64,000 bases of DNA from Clostridiales bacterium (GCA_018371275.1 JAHALF010000003.1:97455-161454); one strand, 5' to 3'. Positions 10,825-33,077 are shown, counted from the first letter of the stretch. Notes: generated by a model not told the origin, from the letters alone. Program-made: numbers and translations.

Positions 10825-12483
10825 TCAAGGTTTAAAAGAACTTTTTAAAGACACTATTCTATTAAACACAAGGTTATCTTTTTCAAAATGCTTACTATCT
10901 GCTACAAAATATCCATTTCTAATAAATTGAAATCTATCCATTTTATTAGCAGAAAGTATAGATGGTTCTATATAAGCATTATTTAAAACGATTAAAGAGT
11001 TTTTATTTTCTATAAGCTCTTTTTCATTATCTAAAGATGGAACAACAAGGCTATCATATAAGTTTATAGTAGCTTTAACAGCGTGTTTTGCAGATACCCA
11101 ATGTATTGTTCCTTTTACTTTACGTCCTGTAAAACCAGAACCACTTTTAGTTTCTGGATCATAAGTGCATCTAAGCTCAACAATGTTGCCATTTTCATCT
11201 TTTATAACTTCATTGCACATTATAAAATATGCACCTTTTAGCCTAACTTCTTTACCTACTGAAAGGCGAAAAAACTTTTTAGGAGCATCTTCTAAAAAAT
11301 CATCTCTTTCTATATAAAGCTCACGAGAAAACATAACTTCTCTATTTCCTAGGTCTTCGTTTTCTGGATTATTCTCAATAGTTAAGGGTTCTTCCATATC
11401 TTCTGGATAGTTTGTTATAACAACTTTTATAGGGTCTAACACTGCCATAACAACATTTACTTTAGCTTTTAAATCTTCTCTTATACAGTATTCTAACTGA
11501 GCTGTATCTACAACGCTAGATGCTTTAGACACACCTACCATTTGACAAAAGTTTTTTATAGATTCTGGAGTGTAGCCTCTTCTTCTTATACCAGATAAAG
11601 TAACAAGACGTGGGTCGTCCCAACCATCTACTTTTCCTTCTTCTACTAATTGTCTTAAATATCTTTTTCCCATAACAGTATTAGATAAATTAAGCTTTGC
11701 AAACTCTATTTGCCTTGGTTTAATTTTAAAATCTAGCTGGTTTATAAACCAATCGTATAAAGGACGATGGTCTTCAAATTCCATTGTACAAATAGAATGA
11801 GTTATTTCTTCAAAGGCATCTTCTAAAGGGTGGGCAAAGTCATACATAGGATATATACACCAATCATTACCAGTTTTATGGTGTGGTATATGAGCTATTC
11901 TATATATAACAGGGTCTCTCATATTTATATTAGGAGATGACATATCTATTTTTGCTCTTAAAGTTTTTTCGCCATCTTTAAATTCACCTTTTTTCATACG
12001 ACTAAAAAGGTCTAAATTTTCTTCAATAGAACGGTTTCTATAAGGACTTTCTTCTCCTGGTGTATTTAAAGAACCTCTTTTTTCTCTAATTTCTTCTGGT
12101 GTTAAATCGCATACAAAAGCTTTGCCTTTTTTTATAAGCTCTACTGCACATTGGTACATTTTTTCGAAATAACTAGAGGCAAAATAAAGTCTATCTTCCC
12201 AGTCAAATCCAAGCCATTTTATATCTTCTTTTATAGAACGAACAAATTCATCATCTTCTTTAGCTGGATTTGTATCATCAAAGCGAAGGTTGCATTTTCC
12301 ACCATAATAGTCTGCAAGCCCAAAGTTTAAACAAATGCTTTTGGCGTGTCCTATATGAAGATATCCATTAGGCTCCGGTGGAAACCTAGTGTGTATTTTG
12401 TTAAGATTTCCTTCAAGGTCTTTTTGTATATAATTATGTATAAAATTACCTGTTTGAGATAGATTGTTATTTTCATTTTCCAT
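10825..12483 (-). CDS. glnS: Glutaminyl-tRNA synthetase
   Basis: HIGH motif ([14 protein letters not shown]) and class-I GlnRS body. I place the start at the ATG at 12483 (AGGAGGAG RBS) rather than the longer track ORF. Confidence 0.85.
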
Positions 12484-12502
12484 AATAAAAACTCCTCCTA
12501 AG

Positions 12503-12745
12503 TTAAAAAGATTTACTTTCAAAATCATAATAGTAAAAAACTTTTTTACAATGTTTACATATACCAAATTTCATAATTTTATCATTATCTTCATTTGATA
12601 ACTTAAAATCTAAATTTACTTTTATATTATCACCAGTTTTTTTACAAATATGATTTTCAAAATAATAATTTTTGCTTTTTTCAAAGCTATCAGCATTTAA
12701 TATAATGTCTTTTAGAGTGTCTAAAAGTTCCATATTTTCCTCCAA
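12503..12745 (-). CDS. Small Cys/His-containing hypothetical protein (80 aa), co-directional with glnS
   Basis: GGAGGA RBS 4 nt upstream of the ATG. HICKK...GICKHCKK suggests a metal-binding knuckle. Ends 17 nt before the glnS start. Confidence 0.4.
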
Positions 12746-12853
12746 ATTATATACTAACTATTAATTTATTATTATATTATAAAGACTTAAAAAGGTCAAA
12801 TTTTTTTGAAAAATAAAATATTAAAAATTTTTTAAAAAATTTTAAAAAAAGTG

Positions 12854-12882
12854 TTGACATATTTAAAGTTATAATATATAAT
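12854..12882 (+). promoter_or_regulatory. Consensus sigma-A promoter (TTGACA-17-TATAAT) for the tRNA pair
   Basis: TTGACA 12854-12859 and TATAAT 12877-12882, about 20 nt upstream of tRNA-Phe. Confidence 0.7.
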
Positions 12883-12901
12883 TAATTTTGTTGTTAAACA
12901 A

Positions 12902-12974
<73 letters not shown>

Positions 12975-12981
12975 TAGCTAT

Positions 12982-13054
12982 GGGTCACTAGCTCAGTTGG
13001 TAGAGCACTGGACTTTTAATCCAGGTGTCCCGGGTTCGAACCCCGGGTGACTCA
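12982..13054 (+). tRNA. tRNA-Lys (UUU)
   Basis: Acceptor gggtcac/gtgactc, anticodon loop cuUUUaa, T-loop GGTTCGAACCC. Confidence 0.9.
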
Positions 13055-13064
13055 TTAAAAAGGG

Positions 13065-13094
13065 GTGTACGCTGTGTGCGTATGCTTTTTTTTG
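13065..13094 (+). terminator. Rho-independent terminator after the tRNA pair
   Basis: GC-rich hairpin ggtgtacgc tgtgt gcgtatgc followed by T8. Confidence 0.7.
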
Positions 13095-13276
13095 TATATA
13101 ATTAATTTTTTAATATTTATAGATATATTTTTTACTTTATGTTAAAATTATTTATATTGGATATAACTATAATATGAAATTTATTTTATATAATGTATAA
13201 TTCATATTATTTTATAAATATTTTTTATACCATATATAGCTAAAAATATAGCTAAAAATTTTTTAAGGAGAATGAT

Positions 13277-15913
13277 ATGGAAAAATTAATGCTTATTGAT
13301 GGACATAGTATAATGAATAGAGCTTTTTATGCAATACCTCTTTTAACAAATAAAGATGGTCAACATACAAACGCTATATATGGCTTTTTAAACATTTTAT
13401 TTAAGCTTATAGAAGAAGAACAACCTACATATATAGGGGTTAGCTTTGATTTACCTAAGCCTACATTTAGACATTTAAAATATAGTGATTATAAGGGAAA
13501 TAGAAAAAAAACTCCAGAGGAATTAAGAAGTCAAATACCTTTAATTAAAGATGTATTAAAAGCTATGAATGTTGTTATATATGAAAAAGAAGGGTATGAG
13601 GCAGATGATGTTTTAGCAACAGTTGCTAAAAAAGCAGAAAGTATAGGTATAAGCCCTATAATTGTAAGTGGTGATAGAGATTTATTACAAGTTGCCACAG
13701 ATAACATAAAAATAAAAATGCCTAAAACAAAAGCAGGTAAAACAGAGATAGAAGACTATTTTGCAAAGGATGTTATAGAAAAATATAGTGTTACACCACA
13801 AGAGTTTATAGAGGTTAAAGCTCTTATGGGGGATACATCAGATAATGTACCAGGTGTTCCTTCTATTGGTGAAAAAACAGCTATAAAAATTATTAGTGAG
13901 TATAAAACAGTTGAAAATGCTATACAAAATGCATCTAATATTAAACCTAAAAAAGCAGGGGAAAATATTTTAGAATATAAAGAGCAAGCTTTACTTAGTA
14001 AGTATTTAGTTAAAATAGATACAGATGTACCTATAGAATTTTTAAATGAAAAAACAGAAAATATATTTAATGAAAATTTCTTTGAACAATGTAAAAAGTA
14101 TGAATTAAAAACTATATTATCAAAATTTAAAGAACCTACAAAAGAAGAAAATATAGGCTTTAAACTTATAGAAAATATAGAACAAGCTAGATCATATTTT
14201 AATAACCTTAAAAAAGATGAAGAAATATCTTATAAAATGATATATGATGACAATATTTTTGTAGGAATAGGATTTACAACAAAAGATGATGTTGGTACTT
14301 TTATAAAAGTAGGTTATAATATAAAAGAACAAGAAATATTAAATATATATAAGCCATTTTTTGAAGAAGACTATAAAAAAATAACTATAGATGCTAAAGC
14401 AGATATTATATTTTTAAATAAACATAATATAAAGTTAAATAATTTAATATTTGATGTTATGATAGGAACATATATTTTAGATCCTACAAAAGATAAATAT
14501 AACTATAATAATATTGCAGAAGAAATATTAGACATAAATTATGAAGATAAAGATGAATTATTAGGCACTAGAAAATCTAAAAAATTTATTTATGATATAG
14601 ATGAAGAAAAATGGTTTAAATATTGTGTAAGGCAAAGCTATGTAGCTTATAAATGTAAACCTATTATTAGTAAAAAAATAGAAGAAAATAATCAACAAGA
14701 GCTTTTCTATAATATAGAAATGCCTCTTATAGAAGTTTTAGCAAGTATGGAGATATATGGTATAAGGGTAAGCAAAGAAGAGCTTATACAGTATCAACAA
14801 GAGCTTGATAAAGAAATAGAAGAGCTTACAAAAGAAATACATTGGTTGGCAGGAGAAGAATTTAATATAAATTCATCTAAACAATTAGGAGAAATACTTT
14901 TTGAAAAGCTTAATTTAAAAGGTAGTAAAAAAACTACAAGAGGTTGGTCTACATCAGCAGATGTTTTAGAAAAATTATATGATAGCCACGAGATAATACC
15001 TAAAATATTAGAATATAGAACATATGCCAAGCTTAAAAGCACATATGCAGATGGGTTATTAAGTGTTTTAAATGAAGAAACAAGCAGAATATATTCTAAC
15101 TTTAACCAAACAGTAACAGCAACAGGTAGGATAAGCAGTACAGAGCCAAATTTACAAAACATACCAATAAAAATAGAGCTTGGTCATAAAGTTAGAAAAG
15201 TTTTTAAACCAGAAAAAGATTACATTTTTGTAGACGCAGATTATTCTCAAATAGAGCTTAGGGTTCTTGCACATTTATCTCAAGATGAATACCTTATACA
15301 AGCTTTTAATGATGGTCAAGACATACACAAAATAACAGCGTCTAAAGTGTTTAATAAATCTTTAGATGATGTTACGAGCTTTGAAAGAAGTGCTGCTAAG
15401 GCTATAAATTTTGGACTTATATATGGAAAACAGGCATTTTCTTTAGCACAAGATTTAGGTATAACAAAGGCTAAAGCAGAAGAATATATAAACGATTATT
15501 TTGATAAATATCCTAAAATAAAAGACTTTTTGGATAATATAGTAGAAAGTACAAAGGAAACTGGTTATACAAAAACAATGTTTAATAGAATAAGATATGT
15601 ACCAGAAATAAATTCTTCTAATTTTGTTCAAAGGGGCGTTGGACAAAGAATAGCTATGAATACACCTATACAAGGAACAGCAGCAGATATTATAAAAGTA
15701 GCTATGGTAAAAGTATATAATCGTATGAAAAAGGAAGATTTAAAGTCTAGATTAATTTTACAAGTACACGATGAGCTTTTAATAGAGGCTTATAAAGATG
15801 AAAAGGATATTATAAAGGAAATATTAAAAGATGAAATGGAAAATGCTATAAGCTTTTCTGTTAAACTTCTTATAGATATAAATGAAGGTGAAAGCTGGTA
15901 TGATACAAAATAG
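13277..15913 (+). CDS. polA: DNA polymerase I
   Basis: N-terminal 5'-3' exonuclease domain, C-terminal polymerase motifs (DYSQIELR, QVHDELL); 878 aa. Confidence 0.9.
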   Translation: MEKLMLIDGHSIMNRAFYAIPLLTNKDGQHTNAIYGFLNILFKLIEEEQPTYIGVSFDLPKPTFRHLKYSDYKGNRKKTPEELRSQIPLIKDVLKAMNVVIYEKEGYEADDVLATVAKKAESIGISPIIVSGDRDLLQVATDNIKIKMPKTKAGKTEIEDYFAKDVIEKYSVTPQEFIEVKALMGDTSDNVPGVPSIGEKTAIKIISEYKTVENAIQNASNIKPKKAGENILEYKEQALLSKYLVKIDTDVPIEFLNEKTENIFNENFFEQCKKYELKTILSKFKEPTKEENIGFKLIENIEQARSYFNNLKKDEEISYKMIYDDNIFVGIGFTTKDDVGTFIKVGYNIKEQEILNIYKPFFEEDYKKITIDAKADIIFLNKHNIKLNNLIFDVMIGTYILDPTKDKYNYNNIAEEILDINYEDKDELLGTRKSKKFIYDIDEEKWFKYCVRQSYVAYKCKPIISKKIEENNQQELFYNIEMPLIEVLASMEIYGIRVSKEELIQYQQELDKEIEELTKEIHWLAGEEFNINSSKQLGEILFEKLNLKGSKKTTRGWSTSADVLEKLYDSHEIIPKILEYRTYAKLKSTYADGLLSVLNEETSRIYSNFNQTVTATGRISSTEPNLQNIPIKIELGHKVRKVFKPEKDYIFVDADYSQIELRVLAHLSQDEYLIQAFNDGQDIHKITASKVFNKSLDDVTSFERSAAKAINFGLIYGKQAFSLAQDLGITKAKAEEYINDYFDKYPKIKDFLDNIVESTKETGYTKTMFNRIRYVPEINSSNFVQRGVGQRIAMNTPIQGTAADIIKVAMVKVYNRMKKEDLKSRLILQVHDELLIEAYKDEKDIIKEILKDEMENAISFSVKLLIDINEGESWYDTK

Positions 15914-20922: not shown

Positions 20923-20970
20923 AGATAATATATTGACATAAAAATATTTAGATGTTATTATATAAAAAAT

Positions 20971-21220
20971 GATAGAGGTGCGTTTTTTATAAGTAAGTAT
21001 GTAGATGTATTTAGGTACAAAAGAAATATACTAAAAGGAAAAAATGCCGAAGGATTAAAATACCTAAATATTTTAACCCTGGTTGTATTAGTTAAAAGCT
21101 GTATGACTGTCGTCTTTTCTGACGGAGAGCTATCTGAAAGTTAGAACAATTGTATCCTTTATTAGCCTTTTGGCTAGTTCTATAAAATTTTCAGACTGGC
21201 TTTTTAGTCAGTCTTTTATA
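20971..21220 (+). ncRNA. Lysine riboswitch (L-box) with a terminator expression platform, leader of asd-dapA-dapB
   Basis: Conserved L-box blocks GATAGAGGTGCG, AATGCCGAAGG, GCTGTATGACTG and GACGGAGAGCTATCTGAAAGTT align with the B. subtilis lysC leader as I recall it. Terminator AGACTG-N10-CAGTCT plus TTTTAT at 21193-21219. Confidence 0.8.
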
Positions 21221-21243: not shown

Positions 21244-22242
21244 ATGAAAAAAGTTGATTTGGCTGTTGTTGGTGTTACGGGTATGGTTGGAAGAACTTTC
21301 TTAAAAGTTTTAGAAGAAAAAAATTTGCCTATAAATAATTTTTATGTATTTGCTTCTAAAAGAAGCGCAGGCAGGAAAATAACTTTTAATGGTAAAGAAT
21401 ATGAAGTGGAAGAGCTTAAAGAAGATTCTTTTGATAGGGGAATAGACATAGCATTATTTTCTGCAGGTGGAGAAACAAGCCGTATATATGCTCCAATAGC
21501 AGCTAGCAAAGGCTGTATTGTAATAGATAACAGTTCACAATTTAGAATGGATAAAGAAGTGCCACTTGTTGTACCAGAGGTAAATCCAGAAGATATTGCT
21601 AAAAATAAAGGTATTATAGCAAACCCTAACTGTTCTACTATACAAGCAGTTGTTGCCTTAAAACCTTTAAATGATAAATATAAAATAAAAAGAATAGTAT
21701 ATTCTACTTATCAAGCAGTTTCTGGTGCTGGTAGAGCTGGTGTTTTAGATTTGCAAAATGGATTAAAAGGGGAAGAACCTAAAATGTTTTTACACCCAAT
21801 AGCAAATAATTGTATACCACATATTGATAATTTTTTAGATAATGGATATACAAAAGAAGAAATGAAAATGATAAATGAAACTAGAAAAATATTACATAAT
21901 GATAATTTAAAAATTACAGCTACTACTGTTCGTGTACCAGTAGAAAATTCCCATAGCGAATCTATAAATGTAGAGTTTTATGAGCAGTTTGATATTAATG
22001 AGTTAATAGAAGAATTAGAAAATATGAAAGGTGTTGTAGTTTTAAATGATTATACAAAAAATCAATATCCTTTAGCTACAATATCTAACGGGACAGACGA
22101 AGTTTACATAGGAAGAATAAGACGTGATGAAAGCCTAGATAATGGTATAAATATGTTTGTTGTGGCGGATAACATAAGAAAAGGTGCAGCTTCTAATGCT
22201 GTTCAAATAGCTGAATATATTATAAAAAATGAAATGATTTAA
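21244..22242 (+). CDS. asd: Aspartate-semialdehyde dehydrogenase
   Basis: VGVTGMVG NAD site, active-site NPNCSTIQ; 332 aa. Confidence 0.9.
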   Translation: MKKVDLAVVGVTGMVGRTFLKVLEEKNLPINNFYVFASKRSAGRKITFNGKEYEVEELKEDSFDRGIDIALFSAGGETSRIYAPIAASKGCIVIDNSSQFRMDKEVPLVVPEVNPEDIAKNKGIIANPNCSTIQAVVALKPLNDKYKIKRIVYSTYQAVSGAGRAGVLDLQNGLKGEEPKMFLHPIANNCIPHIDNFLDNGYTKEEMKMINETRKILHNDNLKITATTVRVPVENSHSESINVEFYEQFDINELIEELENMKGVVVLNDYTKNQYPLATISNGTDEVYIGRIRRDESLDNGINMFVVADNIRKGAASNAVQIAEYIIKNEMI

Positions 22243-22281: not shown

Positions 22282-23166
22282 ATGAGTATTTTTACAGGGT
22301 CAGGTGTTGCAATAGTAACCCCTTTTAAGGAAGATAAGACAGTAGATTTTGTAGCATTTGAAAAGCTTATAAATTTTCAAATAGAAAATGACACAGATGC
22401 TATTATTGTATGTGGCACAACAGGTGAGCCTAGCACTTTAACAGAAGAAGAACGTTTTGAAGTTATTAAATTTTGTGTAGATAAGGTTGCAAAGCGTGTT
22501 CCTGTTATAGCTGGTGCAGGTTGTAATGACACAATGCAAAGTGTTAAAATGTGTAAAAGATGTGAAGAAATAGGTGTAGATGGACTTTTAATAGTTACTC
22601 CTTATTATAATAAAACAACTCAAAAAGGTATTATAAATCATTATAAAATAATAGCAGAAAGTGTAAAATTACCTATTATACTTTATAATGTTCCTTCTAG
22701 AACAGGACTTAATATTTTGCCAAAAACTGTTTTAGAATTATCAAAAGTAGATAACATTGTAGGTATAAAAGAGGCTAGCGGAAATATATCCCAAATAGTT
22801 GAAATAGCTAGTATATGCAAAGAAGACTTTTATATATATTCTGGTAATGATAACCAAATTTTACCTATACTATCTATTGGCGGCAAAGGTGTAATATCTG
22901 TTATGGCTAATATTATACCTAAAGATACTCATAATATTATACAAAAATTTCTTGATAATGATTTTGAAGAAAGTAAAAAAATACAGCTTTTATCAGTAGA
23001 GCTTGCTAGTGCTTTATTTTGTGAAGTTAGCCCTATCCCTGTGAAAACAGCTCTTGAAATTATGGGATATGGAAAAGCATATTTTAGAGAACCTCTTATA
23101 GATATGGAACCAGATAATATTATAGTTTTAAAAAATGCTATGAAAAACTATGGGTTAATAAAATAG
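22282..23166 (+). CDS. dapA: 4-hydroxy-tetrahydrodipicolinate synthase
   Basis: DapA family motifs (GTTGE, YNVPSRTG, GIKEASG); 294 aa. Confidence 0.9.
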   Translation: MSIFTGSGVAIVTPFKEDKTVDFVAFEKLINFQIENDTDAIIVCGTTGEPSTLTEEERFEVIKFCVDKVAKRVPVIAGAGCNDTMQSVKMCKRCEEIGVDGLLIVTPYYNKTTQKGIINHYKIIAESVKLPIILYNVPSRTGLNILPKTVLELSKVDNIVGIKEASGNISQIVEIASICKEDFYIYSGNDNQILPILSIGGKGVISVMANIIPKDTHNIIQKFLDNDFEESKKIQLLSVELASALFCEVSPIPVKTALEIMGYGKAYFREPLIDMEPDNIIVLKNAMKNYGLIK

Positions 23167-23252: not shown

Positions 23253-24011
23253 ATGATAAAAATAATAATGCACGGTTGTAATGGAAAAATGGGACAAGCT
23301 ATATGTAAAATAGTAGAAGAAGATAAAAATAGCGAAATTGTGGCAGGTGTAGATATAAACCCTAATAATGCACCTTTCCCTACTTTTACAGATATAAATG
23401 ATTGTAATATAGAGGCAGATGTTATAATAGATTTTTCTACGGCAACAGCTGTTGATAGACTTATAGATTATTGTTTAAATAAAAAAATGCCAGTTGTTAT
23501 ATGTACCACTGGTATTAATGATGAAACTATTAAAAAAATAGAAGATGCATCTAAACATATACCAGTTTTTAAATCTGCCAATATGAGCCTTGGTATTAAC
23601 CTTATAGCTAGTTTATTAAAAAAAGCATCTGCTATATTAGATGAAAATGGCTTTGATATAGAAATAATAGAAAAGCATCATAATCAAAAAATAGATGCTC
23701 CTAGTGGTACAGCATTATTACTTGCTGATGCTATAAACGAGTCTATGGATAATAAATTTGATTATGTGTATGATAGAAGTCAAGTAAGAGAGAAAAGAAG
23801 TAATAAAGAAATAGGCATATCTGCTATTAGAGGTGGAAATATTGTTGGTGAGCATTCTGTTATATATGCTGGAAAAGACGAAATAATAGAATTTACTCAT
23901 TTTGCACATTCTAAAGAGGTATTTGCAATAGGTGCAGTAAAAGCTAGTAAGTTTTTAGCTAATAAACCTGCTGGTAAATATGATATGCAAGATATAATGG
24001 ATAGTTTATAA
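23253..24011 (+). CDS. dapB: 4-hydroxy-tetrahydrodipicolinate reductase
   Basis: DapB N- and C-domains (EIIEKHHNQKIDAPSGTA); 252 aa. Confidence 0.9.
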   Translation: MIKIIMHGCNGKMGQAICKIVEEDKNSEIVAGVDINPNNAPFPTFTDINDCNIEADVIIDFSTATAVDRLIDYCLNKKMPVVICTTGINDETIKKIEDASKHIPVFKSANMSLGINLIASLLKKASAILDENGFDIEIIEKHHNQKIDAPSGTALLLADAINESMDNKFDYVYDRSQVREKRSNKEIGISAIRGGNIVGEHSVIYAGKDEIIEFTHFAHSKEVFAIGAVKASKFLANKPAGKYDMQDIMDSL

Positions 24012-24157: not shown

Positions 24158-24532
24158 GTGGAAATAATTATATCAAATAGCTCGGGTAAGCCAATTTATG
24201 AACAAATAGCTTATAAAATAAGAATGGAAATTTTAAATGGAACTTTGAAAGAGGGGGATAATTTACCTTCTATAAGGGCATTAGCAAAAGATTTAAAAGT
24301 AAGCGTTATTACAACAAAGAGGGCATATGAAGATTTGCAAAAAGAAGGATTTATATCTACTGTTTCTGGAAAAGGCACTTTTGTTTCTTGTACTAATAAA
24401 GAAAGATTAAAAGAGCAAAATTTTAAAATTGTAGAGAAAAGTCTTACAGAGTGTATATTTATTGCTAAAGCATCTGGTATTACATTAGATGAATTTAGAG
24501 AAATTGTTAATATTATTTTTGAGGAGGAGTAG
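24158..24532 (+). CDS. GntR family transcriptional regulator (YtrA-like short subfamily)
   Basis: Winged-HTH LPSIRALAKDLKVSVITTKRAYEDL; 124 aa. Confidence 0.8.
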   Translation: MEIIISNSSGKPIYEQIAYKIRMEILNGTLKEGDNLPSIRALAKDLKVSVITTKRAYEDLQKEGFISTVSGKGTFVSCTNKERLKEQNFKIVEKSLTECIFIAKASGITLDEFREIVNIIFEEE

Positions 24533-24533
24533 T

Positions 24534-25388
24534 ATGGAAAATATATTAGAAGTTAGAAATTTAACTAAAAAATATAAAGATGTAGGTATAGAAAATATTA
24601 CTTTTAATGTGCCAAAGGGGAGCATTGTTGGGTTTATAGGTAGAAATGGTGCTGGTAAAACAACTACAATAAAAACAATATTAGATATATCAAAAAAAGA
24701 TAGTGGAGAAGTTGTTATATTAGGGGATAGTGAGCTTACAATAGAAACGAAAAATAATATAGGGGTAGTTTTTGACGGGGATACTTTTCCAGAAATATTA
24801 AACATAATAAAGCTTAATAAAATACTTAAAAATATTTATAAAAACTGGAATGAAGAAGTATTTTTTAAATATGTTGAAAAGCTTGATTTACCTACTAATA
24901 AAAAACTTAAACAATTTTCTAAAGGTATGAAAACAAAGTTATCTATAATAGTAAGTTTAAGCTATAATGCCAAGCTTTTAATTTTAGATGAACCTACAAG
25001 TGGTTTAGACCCTGTTGTTAGAGATGAAATTTTAGACATATTTTTAGATTTTATGCAAGATGAGAATAAAGGTATTTTAGTATCTTCACATATTACAAGT
25101 GATTTAGAAAAAGTAGCAGATTATATAGTTTTTATAGATAAAGGTAAGGTTATATTTTTTGAAAGTAAAGATAAAATAATTTATGAATATGGCATATTAA
25201 AATGTAGTGAGGACGATTTGGACAAAATTGATAAAGGTTGTATTTTAAAGAAAATAAAGAAAGGTTATGGTTATGATGCTATTGTAAATAATAAAGAAGA
25301 AATAAAACAACAATATCCTAATTTAGTTATTGACAATTGTACAATAGATGAGTTAATGGTTATATATACAAAGGGGGATAATTTATGA
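24534..25388 (+). CDS. ABC transporter ATP-binding protein
   Basis: Walker A GRNGAGKTT, signature FSKGMKTKL, Walker B LILDEPTSGLD. Start ATG 24534 after GGAGGAG. Confidence 0.85.
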   Translation: MENILEVRNLTKKYKDVGIENITFNVPKGSIVGFIGRNGAGKTTTIKTILDISKKDSGEVVILGDSELTIETKNNIGVVFDGDTFPEILNIIKLNKILKNIYKNWNEEVFFKYVEKLDLPTNKKLKQFSKGMKTKLSIIVSLSYNAKLLILDEPTSGLDPVVRDEILDIFLDFMQDENKGILVSSHITSDLEKVADYIVFIDKGKVIFFESKDKIIYEYGILKCSEDDLDKIDKGCILKKIKKGYGYDAIVNNKEEIKQQYPNLVIDNCTIDELMVIYTKGDNL

Positions 25389-26011
25389 AAGCTTTAATAA
25401 TAGAATTTTTTTATGAAAAGATATCTATTTTATTTGCAATATTTATAATTTTATTTCTTTATTTTATATATATACCTATTTTCCAAGACCCAGAAATAAT
25501 AATATCTTCTTTAGCGTCTTATGTATTTGCTAGTTTATATGGAGGCATAGTGTATAAAAGAAAAAATACAAATTTTGAGATATTTTTATCTAGCTCACCT
25601 TTAGGAAGAAAAACAATTATAAACACAGGGTATATAATAGGTCTAGTATCAAGTATATTTATAACAGTTACTTTTTTAATATTTTATTTTATTAGAAAAT
25701 CATTAATGGATTTAGAACCTTTAAATTTTTTTAGTTTAATGCCAATTTTATGTAGTTTTAGTACTGGGATAATTACAAATGCTATTTTATTTCCAACTTA
25801 TGTATTACCAGATAAAGAAAATAAATTTTTATTAAATTTAGTAGCATTTTTAACTCTTTTTATATGTGGAAGTTTTTTATATTCTTTTATAATTAAGTTA
25901 GATTTTCTTAATATGGTTATAAGGACATTAATATATTTAGGTATTTCTATTTGTATTTATATAGTATCTTATTTAATAACTACTAATAAATATTTGAAAA
26001 AAGAGTTTTAG
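25385..26011 (+). CDS. ABC-2-type membrane permease component, hypothetical
   Basis: About 6 TM helices; translationally coupled (ATGA overlap) to the ATPase. Confidence 0.55.
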   Translation: MKALIIEFFYEKISILFAIFIILFLYFIYIPIFQDPEIIISSLASYVFASLYGGIVYKRKNTNFEIFLSSSPLGRKTIINTGYIIGLVSSIFITVTFLIFYFIRKSLMDLEPLNFFSLMPILCSFSTGIITNAILFPTYVLPDKENKFLLNLVAFLTLFICGSFLYSFIIKLDFLNMVIRTLIYLGISICIYIVSYLITTNKYLKKEF

Positions 26012-26025
26012 GAGAGTGGAAAAAT

Positions 26026-26703
26026 ATGAAAGGTATGTTTTTAAAAGAATTTTATCAATTTAAAGATAATATTCCAGTTTTTATTCTTACAATAGTTTTT
26101 TTTGCAGTAGTATACAGTTTTTTTAATGTTCCATTTCTTGAGCTAGTTATAGTATTTATTATGTTTATTACAGCATCAACTACTTTTTTTAAACAAGAAA
26201 TGCTAAATAACGAAAATAATTTTAATAGGTATTTAAAAACATTACCTATAAATTTTAATAAAATAATAATGGCTAAATATTTATTTATGTTGTTTATAGC
26301 AGTATTGCTTTTATTTATCTCTATTGTATGTTCACTTTTTATTAAAGAAGAAATGGAAATATTATATCAAATAAAGTATTATTTAGGTTATATATTTTTG
26401 TTTAATTTTTGTTTTATATATTTTCCTATTTCCTATTTAATTTTTTTATTTTTAAAAAGCAATTTAATAGCTAGTTTAATTTCAAATTTGGTTGGAATTT
26501 GTATTTCAATGGCAATAAATTCTTTATTAATAGCATTAATGATATCTTTAATTAGTAATATTTTTAAAGTTGATATTAATAGTAGCTTATTTCCTAAAAA
26601 TATATTTTTAATTGCTGGATTAATAAGTACTTTTATATTAGCTATAATAGTTTATATAATTTATAAAATAACTTGTTTAAAATATAGAAAAATTTCAGAA
26701 TAA
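26026..26703 (+). CDS. ABC-2-type membrane permease component, hypothetical
   Basis: Polytopic membrane protein; same operon. Confidence 0.55.
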   Translation: MKGMFLKEFYQFKDNIPVFILTIVFFAVVYSFFNVPFLELVIVFIMFITASTTFFKQEMLNNENNFNRYLKTLPINFNKIIMAKYLFMLFIAVLLLFISIVCSLFIKEEMEILYQIKYYLGYIFLFNFCFIYFPISYLIFLFLKSNLIASLISNLVGICISMAINSLLIALMISLISNIFKVDINSSLFPKNIFLIAGLISTFILAIIVYIIYKITCLKYRKISE

Positions 26704-26710
26704 ATAGAAA

Positions 26711-26738
26711 AGATGTGATTTTAAATCACATCTTTTTT
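26711..26738. terminator. Bidirectional terminator between the ABC operon and the SLH gene
   Basis: Perfect 10-bp stem agatgtgatt/aatcacatct with A-run and T-run flanks. Confidence 0.7.
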
Positions 26739-26746
26739 AATTTTAG

Positions 26747-27943
26747 TTACTGAATAGTTAACATAGTATAAATCATTTGTGCAGATTCACCTCTAGTTGC
26801 GTTTGCTTTAGGAGCAAAGCTACCATCTGGTCTACCATTTATTATACCAGCTTGTTGAACTTTAGCAACAGAAGAACTGGCATAGCTAGAAATATTATTA
26901 GTATCTGTAAAGTTTATTTGTGCTTTATTATTATTTAAGTTAAAGTTTTTGTAATTGCAAAATCTTTCTATCATAACAGCCATTTGCTCTCTAGTAATAT
27001 TGTTGTTAGGGGCAAACGTGCTAGCAGTTATACCACTTGTTATACCATTTTTAGCTGCCCAATCTATATAAGGATTAAACCAAGCATTGTCAGGTACATC
27101 TGTAAAGTTTTCTGCCTTATATTTATTTATATCTATATTGTCCATTTTTGCAAGGAGGGTTATAAATTCTGCCCTAGTAATATTATTATTAGGAGCAAAT
27201 TGGTTATCATTCATACCATTTATAATACCTCTATCTGCAAGATATTTTATAGGTTCATTAGCCCAATGATTAGTTGTATCTTTAAAATTAGATTGTTTAA
27301 TAATAGGATACATAGTATTTATATCTATTTTATTATTGTCATTTTTATTATTATCTTTTATGTTGTTACTATCTTCTTTTTTATTTGTATCTTGTGTAGT
27401 AGATTCTGTTTTCTTATCAGAAGAATTACCTACATTTGCGCCACCACCACTAGAAGAACTAGAAGAGCTATTAGAACTAGTAGTAGTTTCTGTTTGATTA
27501 TCTGTATCATTTTTAATATTTATATTAGCTGTAATATTTTCAGATTGTCCATTTAAACCTTCATCTAAATTTACAAGCTCTAATGTAGCATTTTTAGATA
27601 AGTTAGGTTTATTTTTAAATGTTAATGTACCAACATCTAATGTGCCATTTTCTGTAAGGCTACTGCTATTATCTAAAACGATTGATATAGTAGTTTTTCC
27701 ATTTTCATTATTTTCTTTAACTATACTATAATTAAATTTTTTTGATGGATTAAAACTTATGTTAGTATTGCCACTTTCATCAATTATGTCTAACTGTAAT
27801 GCGTGTATATTTTTATTTATACCTGTTAATTTTATAGTTGCAGTATTATTGTTTATATCTATTGATAATGTTGTATCCGATGCAAAAACATTTGTTACAA
27901 AAAATAAAGTTATTAAAATGCTAGATAACAATTTTTTTATCAC
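26747..27943 (-). CDS. Cell-wall anchoring protein: N-terminal cohesin-like module, Ser/Asn-rich linker, three C-terminal SLH repeats
   Basis: Signal peptide; about 130-aa beta-rich module (TLSIDINNNTATIKLTGINKNIHALQLDI...GTLDVGTLTFKNK); low-complexity linker. Three SLH repeats (FAPNNNITRAEFITLLAKM; FAPNNNITREQMAVMIERF; FAPKANATRGESAQMIYTML). GTG start with AAGGAG RBS. Confidence 0.7.
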   Translation of the reverse strand: MIKKLLSSILITLFFVTNVFASDTTLSIDINNNTATIKLTGINKNIHALQLDIIDESGNTNISFNPSKKFNYSIVKENNENGKTTISIVLDNSSSLTENGTLDVGTLTFKNKPNLSKNATLELVNLDEGLNGQSENITANINIKNDTDNQTETTTSSNSSSSSSSGGGANVGNSSDKKTESTTQDTNKKEDSNNIKDNNKNDNNKIDINTMYPIIKQSNFKDTTNHWANEPIKYLADRGIINGMNDNQFAPNNNITRAEFITLLAKMDNIDINKYKAENFTDVPDNAWFNPYIDWAAKNGITSGITASTFAPNNNITREQMAVMIERFCNYKNFNLNNNKAQINFTDTNNISSYASSSVAKVQQAGIINGRPDGSFAPKANATRGESAQMIYTMLTIQ

Positions 27944-28017
27944 AATAAAAACTCCTTTTTTAGTATTTATCTATCACCTTAAAAGGTGATAGATATTATT
28001 GTATATTTTAATGAAAA

Positions 28018-31000
28018 TTACTTAAATTCTACATTTAAGTTTTTTTGGTCTCCTTGAAGAACTATTGTTGGTAGGCTTTCATCAGTAGGCATAGTAATCC
28101 AAGCTGTATCACTTGTTAAACGTTCTTTAGTAAATGAGCCATCATCATTAAATGTACCTTGCCACATTTGTGCCATAATTTCTGTTGGTAAATCACTTAT
28201 ACTTTCGTGTCCTTTATCTGAACTCTCACCTTGTATTTGTGGTACAAATATAAATATACCTTCAGCTGTGGAAGATGTAATAGTACCATTTTCATCTACA
28301 GTATCAAACATAAGAGTATAACCACCAACTGGTCTTTCTTCTGTTTTAGGTTGTTCATTTAGTGAATTTTCTGTTGAATATATACCTTTAACATAAATGT
28401 TGCTTAAAATAGAGTTTCCTCTATATTTACCTACAATAACTAATGAGTCTTTAGGTATAACATCATCTGTACCTTCTCCATATTTGTAATCAGCAGATAA
28501 TCTACCAATTCCCATTTCCATAAATTCTACATTATCTCCAGGATAAGATAAAAACTCTACATTGTATTTACTAAAATCAAAGTTTTCTAATTTTAACCTA
28601 TTAACATCATAAGCCCATATTTTATCTTCAGAAGAATTTGGTTTATTAAAGTAGTTAATATATGTATTAGACTCAGTTGCAAAGTTATTTGCAAAATTGC
28701 CATCTTTAGCTAATATAAACCCATCATTAGTAGTTTGTGAAGATGTAGGAGCTATATTATCAACAACATCAGCATAGACTTTATATTTGCCTGTTGGCAT
28801 TTGTTCATTACCTTTAGGTGTAACTTTAATACCAGTAACAATAGTTGGCTCAGTAAATGTTACAATACCTGTTTTTTCATCAATTGTATATAAAGATTTT
28901 TCTATTGTGTTATCATAAGATATTCTAACTTGGCCTATTTCTTTTTGTGGACTAATATTACCTAAAACATCTATCGGTTTAATAGCATATGTAAATGTTA
29001 AGTTATTAGCAGAACCTATATAATCTGTATAAGTATTTGTTGTAGTAAATCCAATAGGTTTAAACTCTTTATCACCACTGCCTTTTCTTAATATTTCATA
29101 TCCTTGAACATTATCACTTTGGCTAGTTATTGTAATAAGTACTTCTTTTGCTTTATCATTTTCACTATCTTGTGATTGTTGAAGTTTTGCATTTGCCTCT
29201 ACATTAATATTTTTATTACCAGGGTTGTTATTTAATCTTTGTCTTCTAGATTCATCATTAAGATAATATATAGCTCTGTCTTCTTTAGGAAGTTTACCAA
29301 TCTCTGTTTTAGCTTGTTCAGATAAATCTACGCCCCATCTTGTAAAGAACTCTGTTAAGTCTTTATTTGCTATTTTACTAGCTGCAATGGCAAAATTATT
29401 TATATCTCCAAGATTTTGTCCTTTATATTGTTTATGAAGTTCATTATAAAACTTAAATGGATTATTTGCATCATCATAAGCTAAATGAAGTTGCCAGTAC
29501 ATAGCAAGATGTGTAAATACATCGTTAGGTACACCTTCTTTACCATCAGAAGCTTTTTTAAATGCTTTTTCATAAACATTGCTAAGCTCTAATCTAGATT
29601 TTAATATATTTGTTTTTCCATCATAAGTTTGCCCCATTAATGAATAAATATTGTTAGTAATTTCAGCTTTACCTAATTTATCCATAACGTGACCTATTTC
29701 GTGAGCTATTCCCCAACCAAATAAATTATTTTGTTCTTGTCCTTGAATTATATCTGTTGTAGGTTTTCCATTCATTAGACCAGAAGCAGAACCATATGGT
29801 ATACCAATATGATTTCCAGCAGCATACATAAATGCACCAGAGAACATTTTCATATAACGTATATTATTTCTAGTTTGTAGGCTATTGTTTTTATGGTCAT
29901 CTATGCCATGAGTTTTATACATAACACCCATAAGTTCTTCCCAAGACTGTACATTTTTATACATTTTTTCAACTTTTTCTTCTTGTGTTGATACACCTTC
30001 ATTTATACCATCTAAAACTTTTGTAGCAGGTAGTGATAATAAAACATTAGGTAAAGATATTTCTGTATGATTAAGATTTTGTATTTCTTTATTTCCTGGT
30101 AAATTATATGGGTTATATTCTGTAAGTTCTGTTATAAAATTACGTATTCTTTCTTTAGCCTCAGTTTCACTAATTTTGTGGAAATCATTAAGTTCAAGAT
30201 AAGGTATTTTATGACCTCCTATTATTTGCAATTTAATATCAGAAGCCCTGTTTCCACTATATGTTAAATATAATGAACCACCTCTATCAGTATTAACATT
30301 ACCTATTTTAGGGATAGTTATAATATTTCTACCATTTTTTAAAGGTATAGGAGAGCTAGAAAGTGAATTTGCTTGTTCAAAAAATTGTGTAGGAACAAGA
30401 GAAACTACTTCGCCTTCTGGTATATCAGCATATATAGTAACTTTTTCATTAGCAAGGCCTACAATACCTAATGGTTGCCAGTCATTTATTGCTTTACCAA
30501 ATTTTTGGTTATCAACTTGAGGATTTATAGAATATAAATTATTTTTTATAATTCCTAAATTGTCTGTGTTTTTATTTAATAATGAATCTGCTATTTCAAG
30601 TTCTTTTAATAAAATATTTTTATCAACAACAAAACCTTCTGTGCTAGTTACTTCGGCTTTAAGATTATTTATTTGATCTTGAGTAACATTAGATTTTAGT
30701 TCTGTTCTTGAGCTATTAGCAAAAAGATCAGCTACTCTATCTGCTATATCATTATATTCATAAAATACTACTTCTGAAGCATTTACACGTATTTGACCTG
30801 GTGTTTCATTTAATTTTACTGAAATCTTTTTAATATTTTCTGTTTTAGGAAAAGTAAGAGCATAATATCTATTGTCTTCAAAGCGTTCAGTTATTTTTAC
30901 ATCATTAGCTACAACCGTACCTTGTCCATCTATATTATCTTCTGTCCATACTTTTATAGTATATGAATCATTGGCATTTTTGTAGTTACCATCTAATCTA

Positions 31001-32925
31001 GGTACCCATATTAAATAATCCATAGTTTTAGGTTCTTTAAAAGTAAATATAAATGTATTAGTTTCCCAATATTTTCTTGCAACCCAGTTAGTATAGAAGT
31101 TTTCATCTATTAACCATTTAGGGTCAAATCCATTTGGATATAAACCAGGGTCTACATTATCTTTATGTCCCATTTGTATATCTAATATATTATCATTGGA
31201 TATTTTATTTTTTGTAGGTAATGTAGGTATAATTATTTCTTCTTTTTTTGGTGTTGCTTGTACAGGCTCTGAAAATCCACTTTCTCCTACGCTATTTTGA
31301 GATGTAACATAAACTGTATATTCTATATCATTTGTAAGATTAGTTAATTTATAATTTGTATTAGTTATTCCGCTTTCAACTTTTTTAGGAGAAGAGTCTT
31401 TTTCTGTTTTTACATATACATTATATGTTTTAGCATTTTTTGCAGGTTTCCAGCTAAGAGATATAGTGCTATCACCAGCTGTACCAGTTACAAAGTCTGG
31501 TCTTTCTGGAGCGCTTTCTGGTTGAGGTGTAGCTGAAATAACACTAGATTTATTACCTTCCCAACTACCAGATGTAGCACTTATGCTAAAATAATATGTT
31601 TCAAGATTTTTAAGATCAGATATTGTAATGCTTGTAACATCTGTTGTTATAATATTATCTAAGTTGTTAGCATCTTTACCATAATATACTTTATAGCCAG
31701 TAACATTAGGAACAGCTCTCCAAGATAAAGTAACTTGACTATCACCAGCCTCGGCTTTAATATTTTTTACAGTATTATCTTGTACTATATCTTCATTAAC
31801 AACATCACCTAAAATTTTAACTTCTTCTACTTCTACATAACTACCATCTTTGTTTGGTTTTACATTGATAGTTATCTTTTTAACTGGTTTTCTCGAACCA
31901 AGATTAACAACAACAACCTTTTCTTCATTTTCTTTTGTTCTAGCAAGATTTTGGTCAGATGTTATATCAGAGTCATTTTTAGCAAGCCCTAACATACTAG
32001 AGTTTTGATTAGATGTTGATATAACAGAGCCGCTTTCGTCATATAAAACAATTTCAGCATTTTCAGCTCCAGTTGGAATTTTAACCTCAACACTAGACAT
32101 TTCTTGTGGAGTATTAAATTCTAAAGGAATAGATATATTATCTTGTGAATTTTTAGGTTTAAAAGAAATACTGCTATTACCAGTAAAAAGATTTTCTAAA
32201 TTACCATTTATCTCTTCTATATTGTTAGTATCATTATTAGTAATGTTACTAAATGCGTCATTATCTATATTGGAAATAACTTTAGACTTAACTATTTCTG
32301 TATCAAAGATTTCAGCAGAACTAGATTCTACCATATTTGAATTAACGATAGATATATCAGATACTGTTATTTTTCCATCATTATTAAGGTCATACTCTGT
32401 ATTTTCTGCATTAAGATTATCTTCTAATAGCTTTCTATCAGAAGTATCTACTTTGTTATCTTTGTTTACATCACCTAAAATCATATTTGTAGCTGTGCTA
32501 ACATTTACTCTTTTAGAATAATTGCTAGTGCTTAAATTTACAATAGTTGTTACATAATTTTTACCTTCTAATTTAAGGTTGTAACCATCTTCAGCAGTTA
32601 ATCCACTTATTTTAAATTTTAAAACTGTAACTTTGTTATTTTCTATTGTAGTTTCAGATGTAACATTATAGCCATTAATATCAATAGACTGACTAGAATT
32701 TGTTAAAAAGTCACTTAAATTTATATTTAAAGTTTCAGGACCAGTTAAAGTAGCTGTTAAATTTTTTGATTTTAAACTTTCTATAGTTTCTGGATATTTA
32801 AATCCTATAGCAGTTTCTATGTATGTTTTATCATCATTTGATGAAATGCTATTAGCAAAAGCAGGTGTTATAGCGCTTAATGCTAATGTTGAAGACAAAC
32901 CTAAAGTTAAAAGTTTTTTCTTCAT
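28018..32925 (-). CDS. Secreted multidomain M60-like (enhancin-type) zinc metallopeptidase with an N-proximal dockerin, two Fn3 domains and a CBM32/F5-8-like domain
   Basis: Signal peptide. Dockerin calcium-binding repeats DVNKDNKVDTSD and DLNNDGKITVSD (about nt 32341-32481). Two Fn3 domains (TLSWRAVPNVTGYKVYYG; ISLSWKPAKNAKTYNVYV). GWGIAHEIGHVMD zinc site (about nt 29685-29705). 1,635 aa. Confidence 0.75.
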   Translation of the reverse strand: MKKKLLTLGLSSTLALSAITPAFANSISSNDDKTYIETAIGFKYPETIESLKSKNLTATLTGPETLNINLSDFLTNSSQSIDINGYNVTSETTIENNKVTVLKFKISGLTAEDGYNLKLEGKNYVTTIVNLSTSNYSKRVNVSTATNMILGDVNKDNKVDTSDRKLLEDNLNAENTEYDLNNDGKITVSDISIVNSNMVESSSAEIFDTEIVKSKVISNIDNDAFSNITNNDTNNIEEINGNLENLFTGNSSISFKPKNSQDNISIPLEFNTPQEMSSVEVKIPTGAENAEIVLYDESGSVISTSNQNSSMLGLAKNDSDITSDQNLARTKENEEKVVVVNLGSRKPVKKITINVKPNKDGSYVEVEEVKILGDVVNEDIVQDNTVKNIKAEAGDSQVTLSWRAVPNVTGYKVYYGKDANNLDNIITTDVTSITISDLKNLETYYFSISATSGSWEGNKSSVISATPQPESAPERPDFVTGTAGDSTISLSWKPAKNAKTYNVYVKTEKDSSPKKVESGITNTNYKLTNLTNDIEYTVYVTSQNSVGESGFSEPVQATPKKEEIIIPTLPTKNKISNDNILDIQMGHKDNVDPGLYPNGFDPKWLIDENFYTNWVARKYWETNTFIFTFKEPKTMDYLIWVPRLDGNYKNANDSYTIKVWTEDNIDGQGTVVANDVKITERFEDNRYYALTFPKTENIKKISVKLNETPGQIRVNASEVVFYEYNDIADRVADLFANSSRTELKSNVTQDQINNLKAEVTSTEGFVVDKNILLKELEIADSLLNKNTDNLGIIKNNLYSINPQVDNQKFGKAINDWQPLGIVGLANEKVTIYADIPEGEVVSLVPTQFFEQANSLSSSPIPLKNGRNIITIPKIGNVNTDRGGSLYLTYSGNRASDIKLQIIGGHKIPYLELNDFHKISETEAKERIRNFITELTEYNPYNLPGNKEIQNLNHTEISLPNVLLSLPATKVLDGINEGVSTQEEKVEKMYKNVQSWEELMGVMYKTHGIDDHKNNSLQTRNNIRYMKMFSGAFMYAAGNHIGIPYGSASGLMNGKPTTDIIQGQEQNNLFGWGIAHEIGHVMDKLGKAEITNNIYSLMGQTYDGKTNILKSRLELSNVYEKAFKKASDGKEGVPNDVFTHLAMYWQLHLAYDDANNPFKFYNELHKQYKGQNLGDINNFAIAASKIANKDLTEFFTRWGVDLSEQAKTEIGKLPKEDRAIYYLNDESRRQRLNNNPGNKNINVEANAKLQQSQDSENDKAKEVLITITSQSDNVQGYEILRKGSGDKEFKPIGFTTTNTYTDYIGSANNLTFTYAIKPIDVLGNISPQKEIGQVRISYDNTIEKSLYTIDEKTGIVTFTEPTIVTGIKVTPKGNEQMPTGKYKVYADVVDNIAPTSSQTTNDGFILAKDGNFANNFATESNTYINYFNKPNSSEDKIWAYDVNRLKLENFDFSKYNVEFLSYPGDNVEFMEMGIGRLSADYKYGEGTDDVIPKDSLVIVGKYRGNSILSNIYVKGIYSTENSLNEQPKTEERPVGGYTLMFDTVDENGTITSSTAEGIFIFVPQIQGESSDKGHESISDLPTEIMAQMWQGTFNDDGSFTKERLTSDTAWITMPTDESLPTIVLQGDQKNLNVEFK

Positions 32926-33021
32926 AAAATATATACCTCCTCAATAATAAAAATTATTTATTAATTAAAATAAATATTAAATTGTAAAATTTATCTAAAA
33001 TATTATATCATAAACAAGTAA

Positions 33022-33054
33022 AAAAGTCTATAAATTTGATAAAATATAGACTTT
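33022..33054. promoter_or_regulatory. Perfect 11-bp inverted repeat (AAAAGTCTATA-N11-TATAGACTTTT) overlapping the putative promoter of the M60 gene
   Basis: Lies about 100 nt upstream of the start at 32925; one arm overlaps a TAGACT-17-TATAAT promoter-like element on the minus strand. Confidence 0.45.
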
Positions 33055-33077
33055 TAATAATTATAAAATTTTATAAT

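Follow-up and report, generated by a model that had tools for sequence, protein, structure and literature searches.

Is a secreted protease that carries a dockerin held on the cell surface by the wall-anchored protein encoded next to it? This question is raised by two neighbouring genes in a 64,000-nucleotide stretch of DNA from a gut Clostridiales bacterium (GCA_018371275.1, JAHALF010000003.1:97455-161454), which at its full length is called the window below. The protease gene (28018..32925, minus strand), identified by its open reading frame (ORF), by Pfam and by its Protein Data Bank (PDB) relatives ZmpB, ZmpC and ZmpA, opens with ATG and encodes 1,635 aa. The anchor gene (26747..27943, minus strand), identified by its ORF and by Pfam, opens with GTG and encodes a 398-aa protein with S-layer homology (SLH) repeats. 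An earlier note, made from the DNA alone, had described two co-directional minus-strand genes 74 nt apart, the second with a good ribosome-binding site (RBS), and the ORFs lie exactly so, with a spacer at 27944-28017. We consider it likely that these genes form a two-gene cassette which displays one enzyme on the cell surface. By analogy with the SdbA–CipA pair of Clostridium thermocellum, the device is probably a dedicated cohesin–dockerin tether that keeps an O-glycoprotein protease on the cell wall. In the proposed mechanism, both proteins would be exported by Sec, and the SLH triplet would bind the secondary cell-wall polymer non-covalently. The cohesin-like module of the anchor would capture the Ca2+-folded dockerin of the protease, possibly aided by an X module, and the protease would be kept on the wall via a flexible linker, probably at 1:1. 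From there it would cleave O-glycosylated (mucin-type) host proteins beside the cell. The anchoring logic of SdbA–CipA (type II cohesin/X-dockerin) would then have been cut down to one anchor and one enzyme.

The dockerin half of this proposal is visible in standard profiles. It occupies residues 150-198 of the protease (32332..32478, minus strand) as two calcium-binding loop–helix repeats, DVNKDNKVDTSD...DLNNDGKITVSD, and Dockerin_1 (PF00404) matches residues 150-196 with 26.0 bits, which passes the curated Pfam cut-off of 22.9; orthologues score 21.9-28.6 bits. Within the segment GDVNKDNKVDTSDRKLLEDNLNAENTEYDLNNDGKITVSDISIVNSNM there are two canonical 12-residue calcium loops, each followed by a helix and joined by a short linker. 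Both loops, DVNKDNKVDTSD and DLNNDGKITVSD, fit the F-hand pattern, with D/N at loop positions 1, 3 and 5 and D at position 12. All 9 orthologues of full or nearly full length, the most distant with 34% overall identity, have them at the same place near the N-terminus. Directly N-terminal to the dockerin and contiguous with it lies an Ig-like, X-like beta-sandwich module at about residues 34-142 (32500..32826, minus strand), recognised from a model predicted with AlphaFold2 (AF2; predicted local distance difference test, pLDDT, 70-85), from the X module of 2b59_B and from Foldseek. The earlier note had placed the dockerin near the N-terminus after an Ig-like module, and this arrangement is borne out.

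The same note had called the dockerin type I, and here the comparison points elsewhere. For residues 25-221, the best PDB sequence match is the CipA type II X-dockerin 2b59_B (phmmer, E 3.6e-4), in an alignment that covers the last X-module strands through both dockerin repeats; the NagJ dockerin of Clostridium perfringens (2jnk/2ozn) and type I dockerins score below it in the PDB sequence search. The six best Foldseek matches of the AF2 model of the X-module–dockerin dyad (X-Doc) are likewise type II X-Doc dyads of the CipA/ScaA type. These matches, with TM-scores of only 0.34-0.40, are indicative only, because the model, built on a 4-row alignment, has an overall pLDDT of 63 (70-85 in the beta-sandwich) and a poorly defined dockerin. 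Since the best sequence match and the six top fold matches are all type II X-Doc, the dyad appears to be a type II-like X-Doc in an unusual N-terminal position rather than a plain type I dockerin, although it does not sit at the C-terminus of a scaffoldin, as the definition of a type II X-dockerin has it, and its proposed partner module is devoid of the helix and flap insertions that characterise type II cohesins.

The anchor protein has the layout that the earlier note had read from it, which is also that of SLH-anchored scaffoldins (SdbA, OlpB and Orf2p): on the minus strand, a signal peptide is followed by one module, a linker and an SLH triplet. Residues 1-21 (27881..27943) form a signal peptide that ends in ...TNVFA, followed by SD, and is kept in family members. 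The cohesin-like module, so called at the level of fold only, covers residues 22-148 (about 127 aa; 27500..27880), and its translation continues into a low-complexity linker rich in Ser, Thr, Asn and Lys (residues 149-218; 27290..27499). The three SLH repeats (residues 219-398; 26750..27289; Pfam SLH, 150.1 bits in three stretches) are a predicted cell-wall anchor, homologous to the SLH domains of Bacillus anthracis Sap and of SbsB (E ~3e-18 against PDB sequences). SLH binding needs a pyruvylated secondary cell-wall polymer in the host (CsaB), and the repeats would attach the anchor to such a polymer.

The module itself was modelled by AF2 from a 12-sequence alignment with high confidence (pLDDT 92.8, pTM 0.86) as a sandwich of nine beta-strands. 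In a Foldseek comparison with the PDB, ranks 1-30 are all cohesins, headed by the non-cellulosomal cohesin 2xdh of Archaeoglobus fulgidus (E 8e-5) and including CohA2 of Clostridium acetobutylicum, ScaB of Acetivibrio cellulolyticus, and 2vo8 and 2jh2 of C. perfringens, with TM-scores of only 0.45-0.57. The structure prediction that the earlier note had suggested turns up cohesins as the best matches.

The strongest new evidence comes from the company that the module keeps. An exhaustive search of 1.84 billion representative proteins showed the module family to be rare, with 15 matches and 11 genuine members, 10 of which have SLH repeats and one of which is a 215-aa fragment. The matches P0006, P0007, P0011 and P0014 were rejected as Big/Ig-repeat relatives, these being long or repetitive unrelated proteins; hhalign of the repeat-protein matches gave 3% (P0006) and 0.3% (P0007). 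Loci were scanned in GTDB species genomes for the closest family members (4-sequence alignment), and contig look-ups covered distant members with 25-39% module identity. In 11 of 12 distinct family members, the gene that immediately precedes the module-SLH gene encodes the dockerin-bearing M60 protease, in some cases as a fragment. A full upstream dockerin and M60 gene (about 1,600 aa) is found in eight loci, namely the window, three loci from metagenome-assembled genomes (MAGs) annotated as uncultured Clostridia (L001, L002 and L003; 1,609-1,631 aa, Dockerin+fn3+M60), and four with Dockerin+M60 products of 1,597 aa (L005, beside P0005), 1,685 aa (L006, P0008), 1,612 aa (L009, P0012) and 1,690 aa (L014, P0015). 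The upstream gene in L008 (P0010) is a 5'-cut orthologue in which the dockerin is still present, and on the short contigs L004, L007, L010 and L011 (P0003, P0009 and P0012) the upstream fragments match the protease C-terminus (E 1e-24 to 1e-132).

The two genes thus behave as a conserved cassette, their pairing persisting in genomes of 25 to 58% GC despite different flanking genes, and the dockerin is kept wherever the cassette occurs. In the distant loci the genes are separated by 10-12 nt or overlap, by 4 nt in L014. Across the window and 14 related loci, there is exactly one dockerin and one cohesin-like module per locus. It is hard to see, without functional coupling, why adjacency should be kept in such differing flanks, and we regard it as very improbable that the SLH protein is an unrelated one, joined to the protease by no more than a common transcription unit or neighbourhood, and that its cohesin-like fold is coincidental. 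Such an accident would sit well with the general experience that SLH proteins with assorted N-terminal sandwiches are common, and a conserved intergenic hairpin, described below, could mark separate regulation, but the adjacency across genomes of such different composition speaks against it.

In two of the distant anchors, P0008 (L006 7880-9301) and P0015 (L014 5303-6631), the cohesin-like module and the SLH repeats are separated by a further domain, identified in P0015 as a divergent InlB B-repeat (Flg_new_2, E 1e-13), so that the anchor stalk varies in length.

Several observations weigh against a cohesin–dockerin tether. The claim that the module resembles a cohesin holds for its predicted fold, whereas sequence profiles do not support it: the Pfam Cohesin profile (PF00963), a check named in the earlier note, gave no match at E<=1 to the window protein or to 10 relatives, and hhalign of the family alignment against the genuine CipA cohesin P0019 returned a probability of 0.04%, the reference being this single CipA sequence. 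No cohesin was found among PDB sequences with either the anchor protein or the 12-member family profile as query (E<=10), the best matches of the profile being noise at E 0.14 or worse. At about 127 aa, the module is smaller than typical cohesins (140-170 aa), and with an X-Doc as partner one would expect type II insertions, which are absent from it. On the other side of the proposed interface, the dockerin part of the X-Doc model is of low confidence, with pLDDT below 50. A conserved hairpin between the two genes may mean that expression of the pair is partly uncoupled. One family member, P0013 (L012 6841-7920, also in L013), has neither an M60 nor a dockerin gene in its 18-kb locus; in L012 the stretch free of M60 genes extends over 6.8 kb upstream and 10 kb downstream. 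Finally, the genome was covered over 64 kb, and other cohesins or dockerins could lie outside.

By predicted fold, then, the module falls among the cohesins by a modest margin, and by sequence it does not. A fold without a sequence match has precedent in the X82 modules of C. perfringens, which were recognised as cohesins via structure, and in ruminococcal cohesins detectable only by AF2. As for P0013, either its partner is encoded elsewhere or the module is used differently in that lineage. The P0013 source has about 50% GC, and genes for a P-type ATPase and a polysaccharide deacetylase flank the anchor gene there.

A different reading of the same observations is that the anchor module is a generic Ig-like or CBM-like sandwich (CBM, carbohydrate-binding module) that recognises a glycan, some host ligand or a different protease domain instead of the dockerin. 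The dockerin would then dock to a cohesin elsewhere or be a Ca2+-stabilised structural element, and the two genes would be neighbours through a shared part in surface mucin degradation. The lack of any cohesin signal at the level of sequence, Foldseek TM-scores near 0.5 and the family member without a protease neighbour all agree with this. Nevertheless, we judge it unlikely, given that every partner protease keeps its dockerin down to 34% identity, that one dockerin goes with one module in each locus, and that the tight or overlapping junctions of distant loci point to a stoichiometric partnership.

Less likely still is membership of the pair in a larger multi-enzyme system resembling mucinolysomes or cellulosomes, where the SLH protein would be a general anchor for several dockerin enzymes or scaffoldins encoded elsewhere. 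Published mucinolysomes do have dockerin-bearing peptidases and a single-cohesin wall anchor (PMC12997984), and 64 kb of the genome was covered here. Yet each of the window and the 14 related loci holds exactly one dockerin and one cohesin-like module, and no multi-cohesin scaffoldin and no multiple dockerin enzymes are present in the 64-kb window or the related loci. A sequence search with the X-Doc returned nothing beyond pieces of orthologous proteases. The module family is very small, with the same protease adjoining it in 11 of 12 members, and the neighbourhood consists of housekeeping genes, not of clusters for carbohydrate-active enzymes (CAZymes). The dedicated tether, probably of one module to one dockerin, accordingly remains our preferred explanation.

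The cargo of this putative tether is a secreted protein of 1,635 aa, as the earlier note had it, with a signal peptide at residues 1-24 (32854..32925, minus strand; ...TPAFA, followed by NS) that is kept in orthologues. Read from the sequence, the signal peptides of both protease and anchor are Sec-type, with AFA|N and VFA|S, respectively, as their boundaries. Behind the X-Doc come two fn3 domains at about residues 389-560 (31246..31761, minus strand; Pfam fn3, 64.8 bits in two stretches, with Fn3 matches in the PDB), and then an M60-like/Zmp-type glycopeptidase region at residues 813-1319 (28969..30489, minus strand). Its Pfam core, Peptidase_M60 (PF13402) at residues 988-1198, scores 71.9 bits against a cut-off of 25.8 (E 8e-20). 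The zinc-binding motif HEIGH at residues 1075-1079 (29689..29703, minus strand) is followed by GKAE, and a motif scan found HEIGH-x7-E, with Glu 12 residues past 1075, to be invariant across 9 orthologues. The nearest solved relatives are O-glycopeptidases of C. perfringens, namely ZmpB (7jfs, 5kdn, 5kdj; E 4e-34 to 7e-32), ZmpC (6xsz) and ZmpA (6xsx), which align with residues ~694-1327 of the protease at E values ranging from 1e-34 to 1e-21; the catalytic region aligns with residues 45-518 of ZmpB 5kdn_A (E 1.7e-32) over about 500 residues. The inferred substrates of the protease are O-glycosylated (mucin-type) host proteins near the cell.

Of the modules attributed to the protease in the earlier note, the M60-like HEIGH domain and Fn3 thus stand, whereas the CBM32-like one is only weakly supported. 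In a chunked Pfam scan, F5_F8_type_C matched residues 201-390 at E 0.036 and 14.6 bits, below the cut-off of 28.2, and did not match residues 561-730; in orthologues its matches are weak or faint. CBM32 modules are typical of many M60-like proteins. The window protease has the ~500-residue homology and the HEXXH...E motif in common with the M60-like/Zmp O-glycopeptidases of PF13402, and differs in that CBM32 is not clearly detectable. A 2012 survey had already tabulated Dockerin_1 on 2 M60-like proteins and SLH on 1, and a partner cohesin was not proposed (PMC3267712).

In exact look-ups, the protease corresponds to MBS5793737.1, publicly named ‘M60 family metallopeptidase’, and the anchor to MBS5793736.1, named ‘S-layer homology domain-containing protein’; no source annotation of the pair names a cohesin. 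The anchor belongs to a 28-member cluster in the protein collection, and near-identical copies are present in MAGs labelled Lachnospirales bacterium.

If both partners are to meet on the wall, how are their genes expressed? The earlier note had considered them probably co-transcribed, and the co-directional arrangement with a 74-nt gap is in keeping with this, the conserved hairpin in that gap being a caveat; co-transcription may be inferred. A candidate sigma-70-type promoter, TAGACT-17-TATAAT with an extended -10 TG (33002..33030, minus strand; pattern match only, from a consensus scan), lies upstream of the protease gene, just past a terminator-like hairpin of a yitT-like gene (~33020-33055). 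At the other end, a terminator-like hairpin with a T-run 3' of the anchor gene (26708..26736, minus strand) is common to it and to a convergent ATP-binding cassette (ABC) transporter operon. With a promoter-like site and a hairpin before the protease gene, and a hairpin and T-run at the end of the anchor gene, the pair resembles a self-contained unit. GGAGG precedes the ATG of the protease gene. The RBS of the anchor gene, AGGAG (27952..27956, minus strand), 8 nt before the GTG, is kept in L001-L003.

The spacer hairpin is a 12-bp stem-loop (27968..27995, minus strand) with a predicted RNA folding energy of -18.7 kcal/mol (z -3.85). Among the window and its low-GC relatives L001 (~9888-9913), L002 (~9886-9911) and L003 (~9884-9909), 97.9% of cells are paired and 2 pairs show compensatory changes. 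It is absent from the distant orthologues, where spacers are 10-12 nt or the genes overlap. A canonical intrinsic terminator was ruled out, because on the coding strand the stem-loop is followed by an A-rich stretch and the RBS, not by a U-tract. Possible roles are the attenuation of read-through, the stabilisation of an upstream 3' end, or processing that fixes the protease:anchor ratio.

The start codons of the pair show a further pattern. That of the anchor gene is non-ATG throughout, being GTG in the window (27941-27943), L001 (9938) and L002 and TTG in L003 (9935), which may affect the relative translation of both partners. ATG opens the protease gene in the window, in L001 and in L002; for L003, the ORF as listed begins at an upstream GTG. 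On the opposite strand, two ORFs overlie the pair, at 26984-27556 (190 aa) and 32222-32521 (99 aa), both plus; their products look to be of low complexity, and AT-rich sequence, rather than true coding, probably accounts for them.

How does the pair relate to cohesin–dockerin systems already described? SdbA of C. thermocellum, with a type II cohesin and three SLH repeats, has the same anchor layout of signal peptide, one cohesin-fold module, linker and SLH triplet. The CipA X-dockerin (PDB 2b59, 5g5d) is matched here by a likewise contiguous X module and dockerin, for which CipA/ScaA dyads are the best matches, and the predicted outcome, non-covalent attachment to the cell wall, is also that of SdbA–CipA. 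The cargo of SdbA, however, is a multi-cohesin scaffoldin with a C-terminal X-Doc, whereas the pair in the window has an enzyme as cargo, an N-terminal X-Doc, an apparent 1:1 relation and adjacent genes.

A second parallel is found in the X82 cohesin–dockerin toxin complexes of C. perfringens (NagH/NagJ/NanJ; 2ozn, 2vo8, 2jh2), which also combine a setting of host-glycan or glycoprotein degradation with divergent single cohesins. The link extends to both partners, as the NagJ dockerin is among the dockerin matches and the protease is homologous to ZmpB, ZmpC and ZmpA. The C. perfringens cohesins are parts of glycoside hydrolases and serve to join enzymes to one another (PMC12997984); here, in contrast, the cohesin-like module belongs to an SLH anchor without catalytic function, with a peptidase as cargo. 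Limousia mucinolysomes are mucin-degrading cohesin–dockerin assemblies with dockerin-bearing peptidases and a wall-anchored single-cohesin protein (PMC12997984; bioRxiv 10.1101/2025.10.14.682383). They comprise multi-cohesin scaffoldins, dozens of dockerin proteins, a sortase (LPXTG) anchor and Pfam-detectable modules, whereas the window has one enzyme, one anchor, SLH anchoring and a cohesin-like module invisible to hidden Markov models (HMMs). A 2026 study reported 177 ruminococcal cohesins detectable only by AF2 (PMC13463774). In these, as in the present family, the fold is kept beyond profile detection and was found via predicted structure and dockerin partners; the Ruminococcus cohesins belong to multi-component cellulosomes or amylosomes, and the module described here is a single SLH-anchored one whose companion in Lachnospirales/Tyzzerella-like and other Clostridia is an M60 protease.

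Cohesin–dockerin pairs outside cellulosomes (C. perfringens toxins, mucinolysomes), dockerin-bearing peptidases and HMM-invisible cohesins are therefore already known. What is new is the combination: a minimal cohesin-fold family that HMMs do not detect, anchoring by SLH repeats, a type II-like X-Doc placed N-terminally on a Zmp-type protease, and a strictly paired and widely dispersed cassette of two genes. Since the general principle is already established, the gain is incremental rather than conceptual. We incline, if only by a little, towards a more specific view of this combination: that the ~125-aa module represents an unrecognised minimal cohesin family, which escapes Pfam/CDD-type profiles and pairs 1:1 with an X-dockerin, type II-like and N-terminal, of an M60-like glycoprotease. 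The two genes would move jointly among phylogenetically distant Clostridia (25-58% GC) as a self-contained unit for surface display. Such a pair would be either a pared-down relative of the SdbA–CipA interaction or a separate offshoot of it, and the first dedicated cohesin–dockerin anchor for a single host-glycoprotein protease.

Should the module bind the dockerin, an HMM-invisible family would be added to the cohesins, and Pfam-based surveys would be missing simple two-gene systems, as they have in ruminococcal cellulosomes. Some gut Clostridia would keep an M60-like mucin-type protease on the wall instead of releasing it, which would be relevant to their attack on the mucus layer and to their retention of the products. 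The pair would also offer a small orthogonal cohesin/X-dockerin couple for the engineering of protein display, and a natural minimal case for the evolution of type II-like anchoring interactions.

The surroundings of the pair are neither a glycan-utilisation locus nor a CAZyme cluster. They consist of chromosomal housekeeping genes, including aroG-like, htpG, polA, asd/dapB, coaD, recG, fakA, miaA and alr genes and one for a LytR-CpsA-Psr (LCP) protein, together with a phosphotransferase system with alpha-glucosidase. The LCP family protein is encoded at 8001-9347 (minus strand). Enzymes of this class attach secondary wall polymers to peptidoglycan, and the protein could be relevant to SLH anchoring, for which it is not specific evidence. 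The operon that converges with the anchor gene (24158-26703, plus strand) encodes a predicted small transcriptional regulator, an ABC ATPase and two multi-pass membrane proteins. In L001, ORFs similar to it in size and order, the only features compared, occupy 11150-13349 (minus strand), and the other side of the cassette differs; this resemblance on the ABC-operon side only suggests a cassette boundary at the protease end.

Further away, a lysine riboswitch (RF00168, 106.5 bits) at 20965-21140 (plus strand) lies upstream of asd (21244-22242), which is followed on the same strand by a 294-aa ORF (22282-23166) and dapB (23253-24011), an ordinary lysine-biosynthesis arrangement. A cluster-mate of the dapB product is annotated as uncultured Tyzzerella sp. 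Two adjacent tRNA genes (12902-12974 and 12982-13054, plus strand) lie between a Glu/Gln-tRNA synthetase gene (minus strand) and polA (plus strand); gene orientation and GC skew both switch here.

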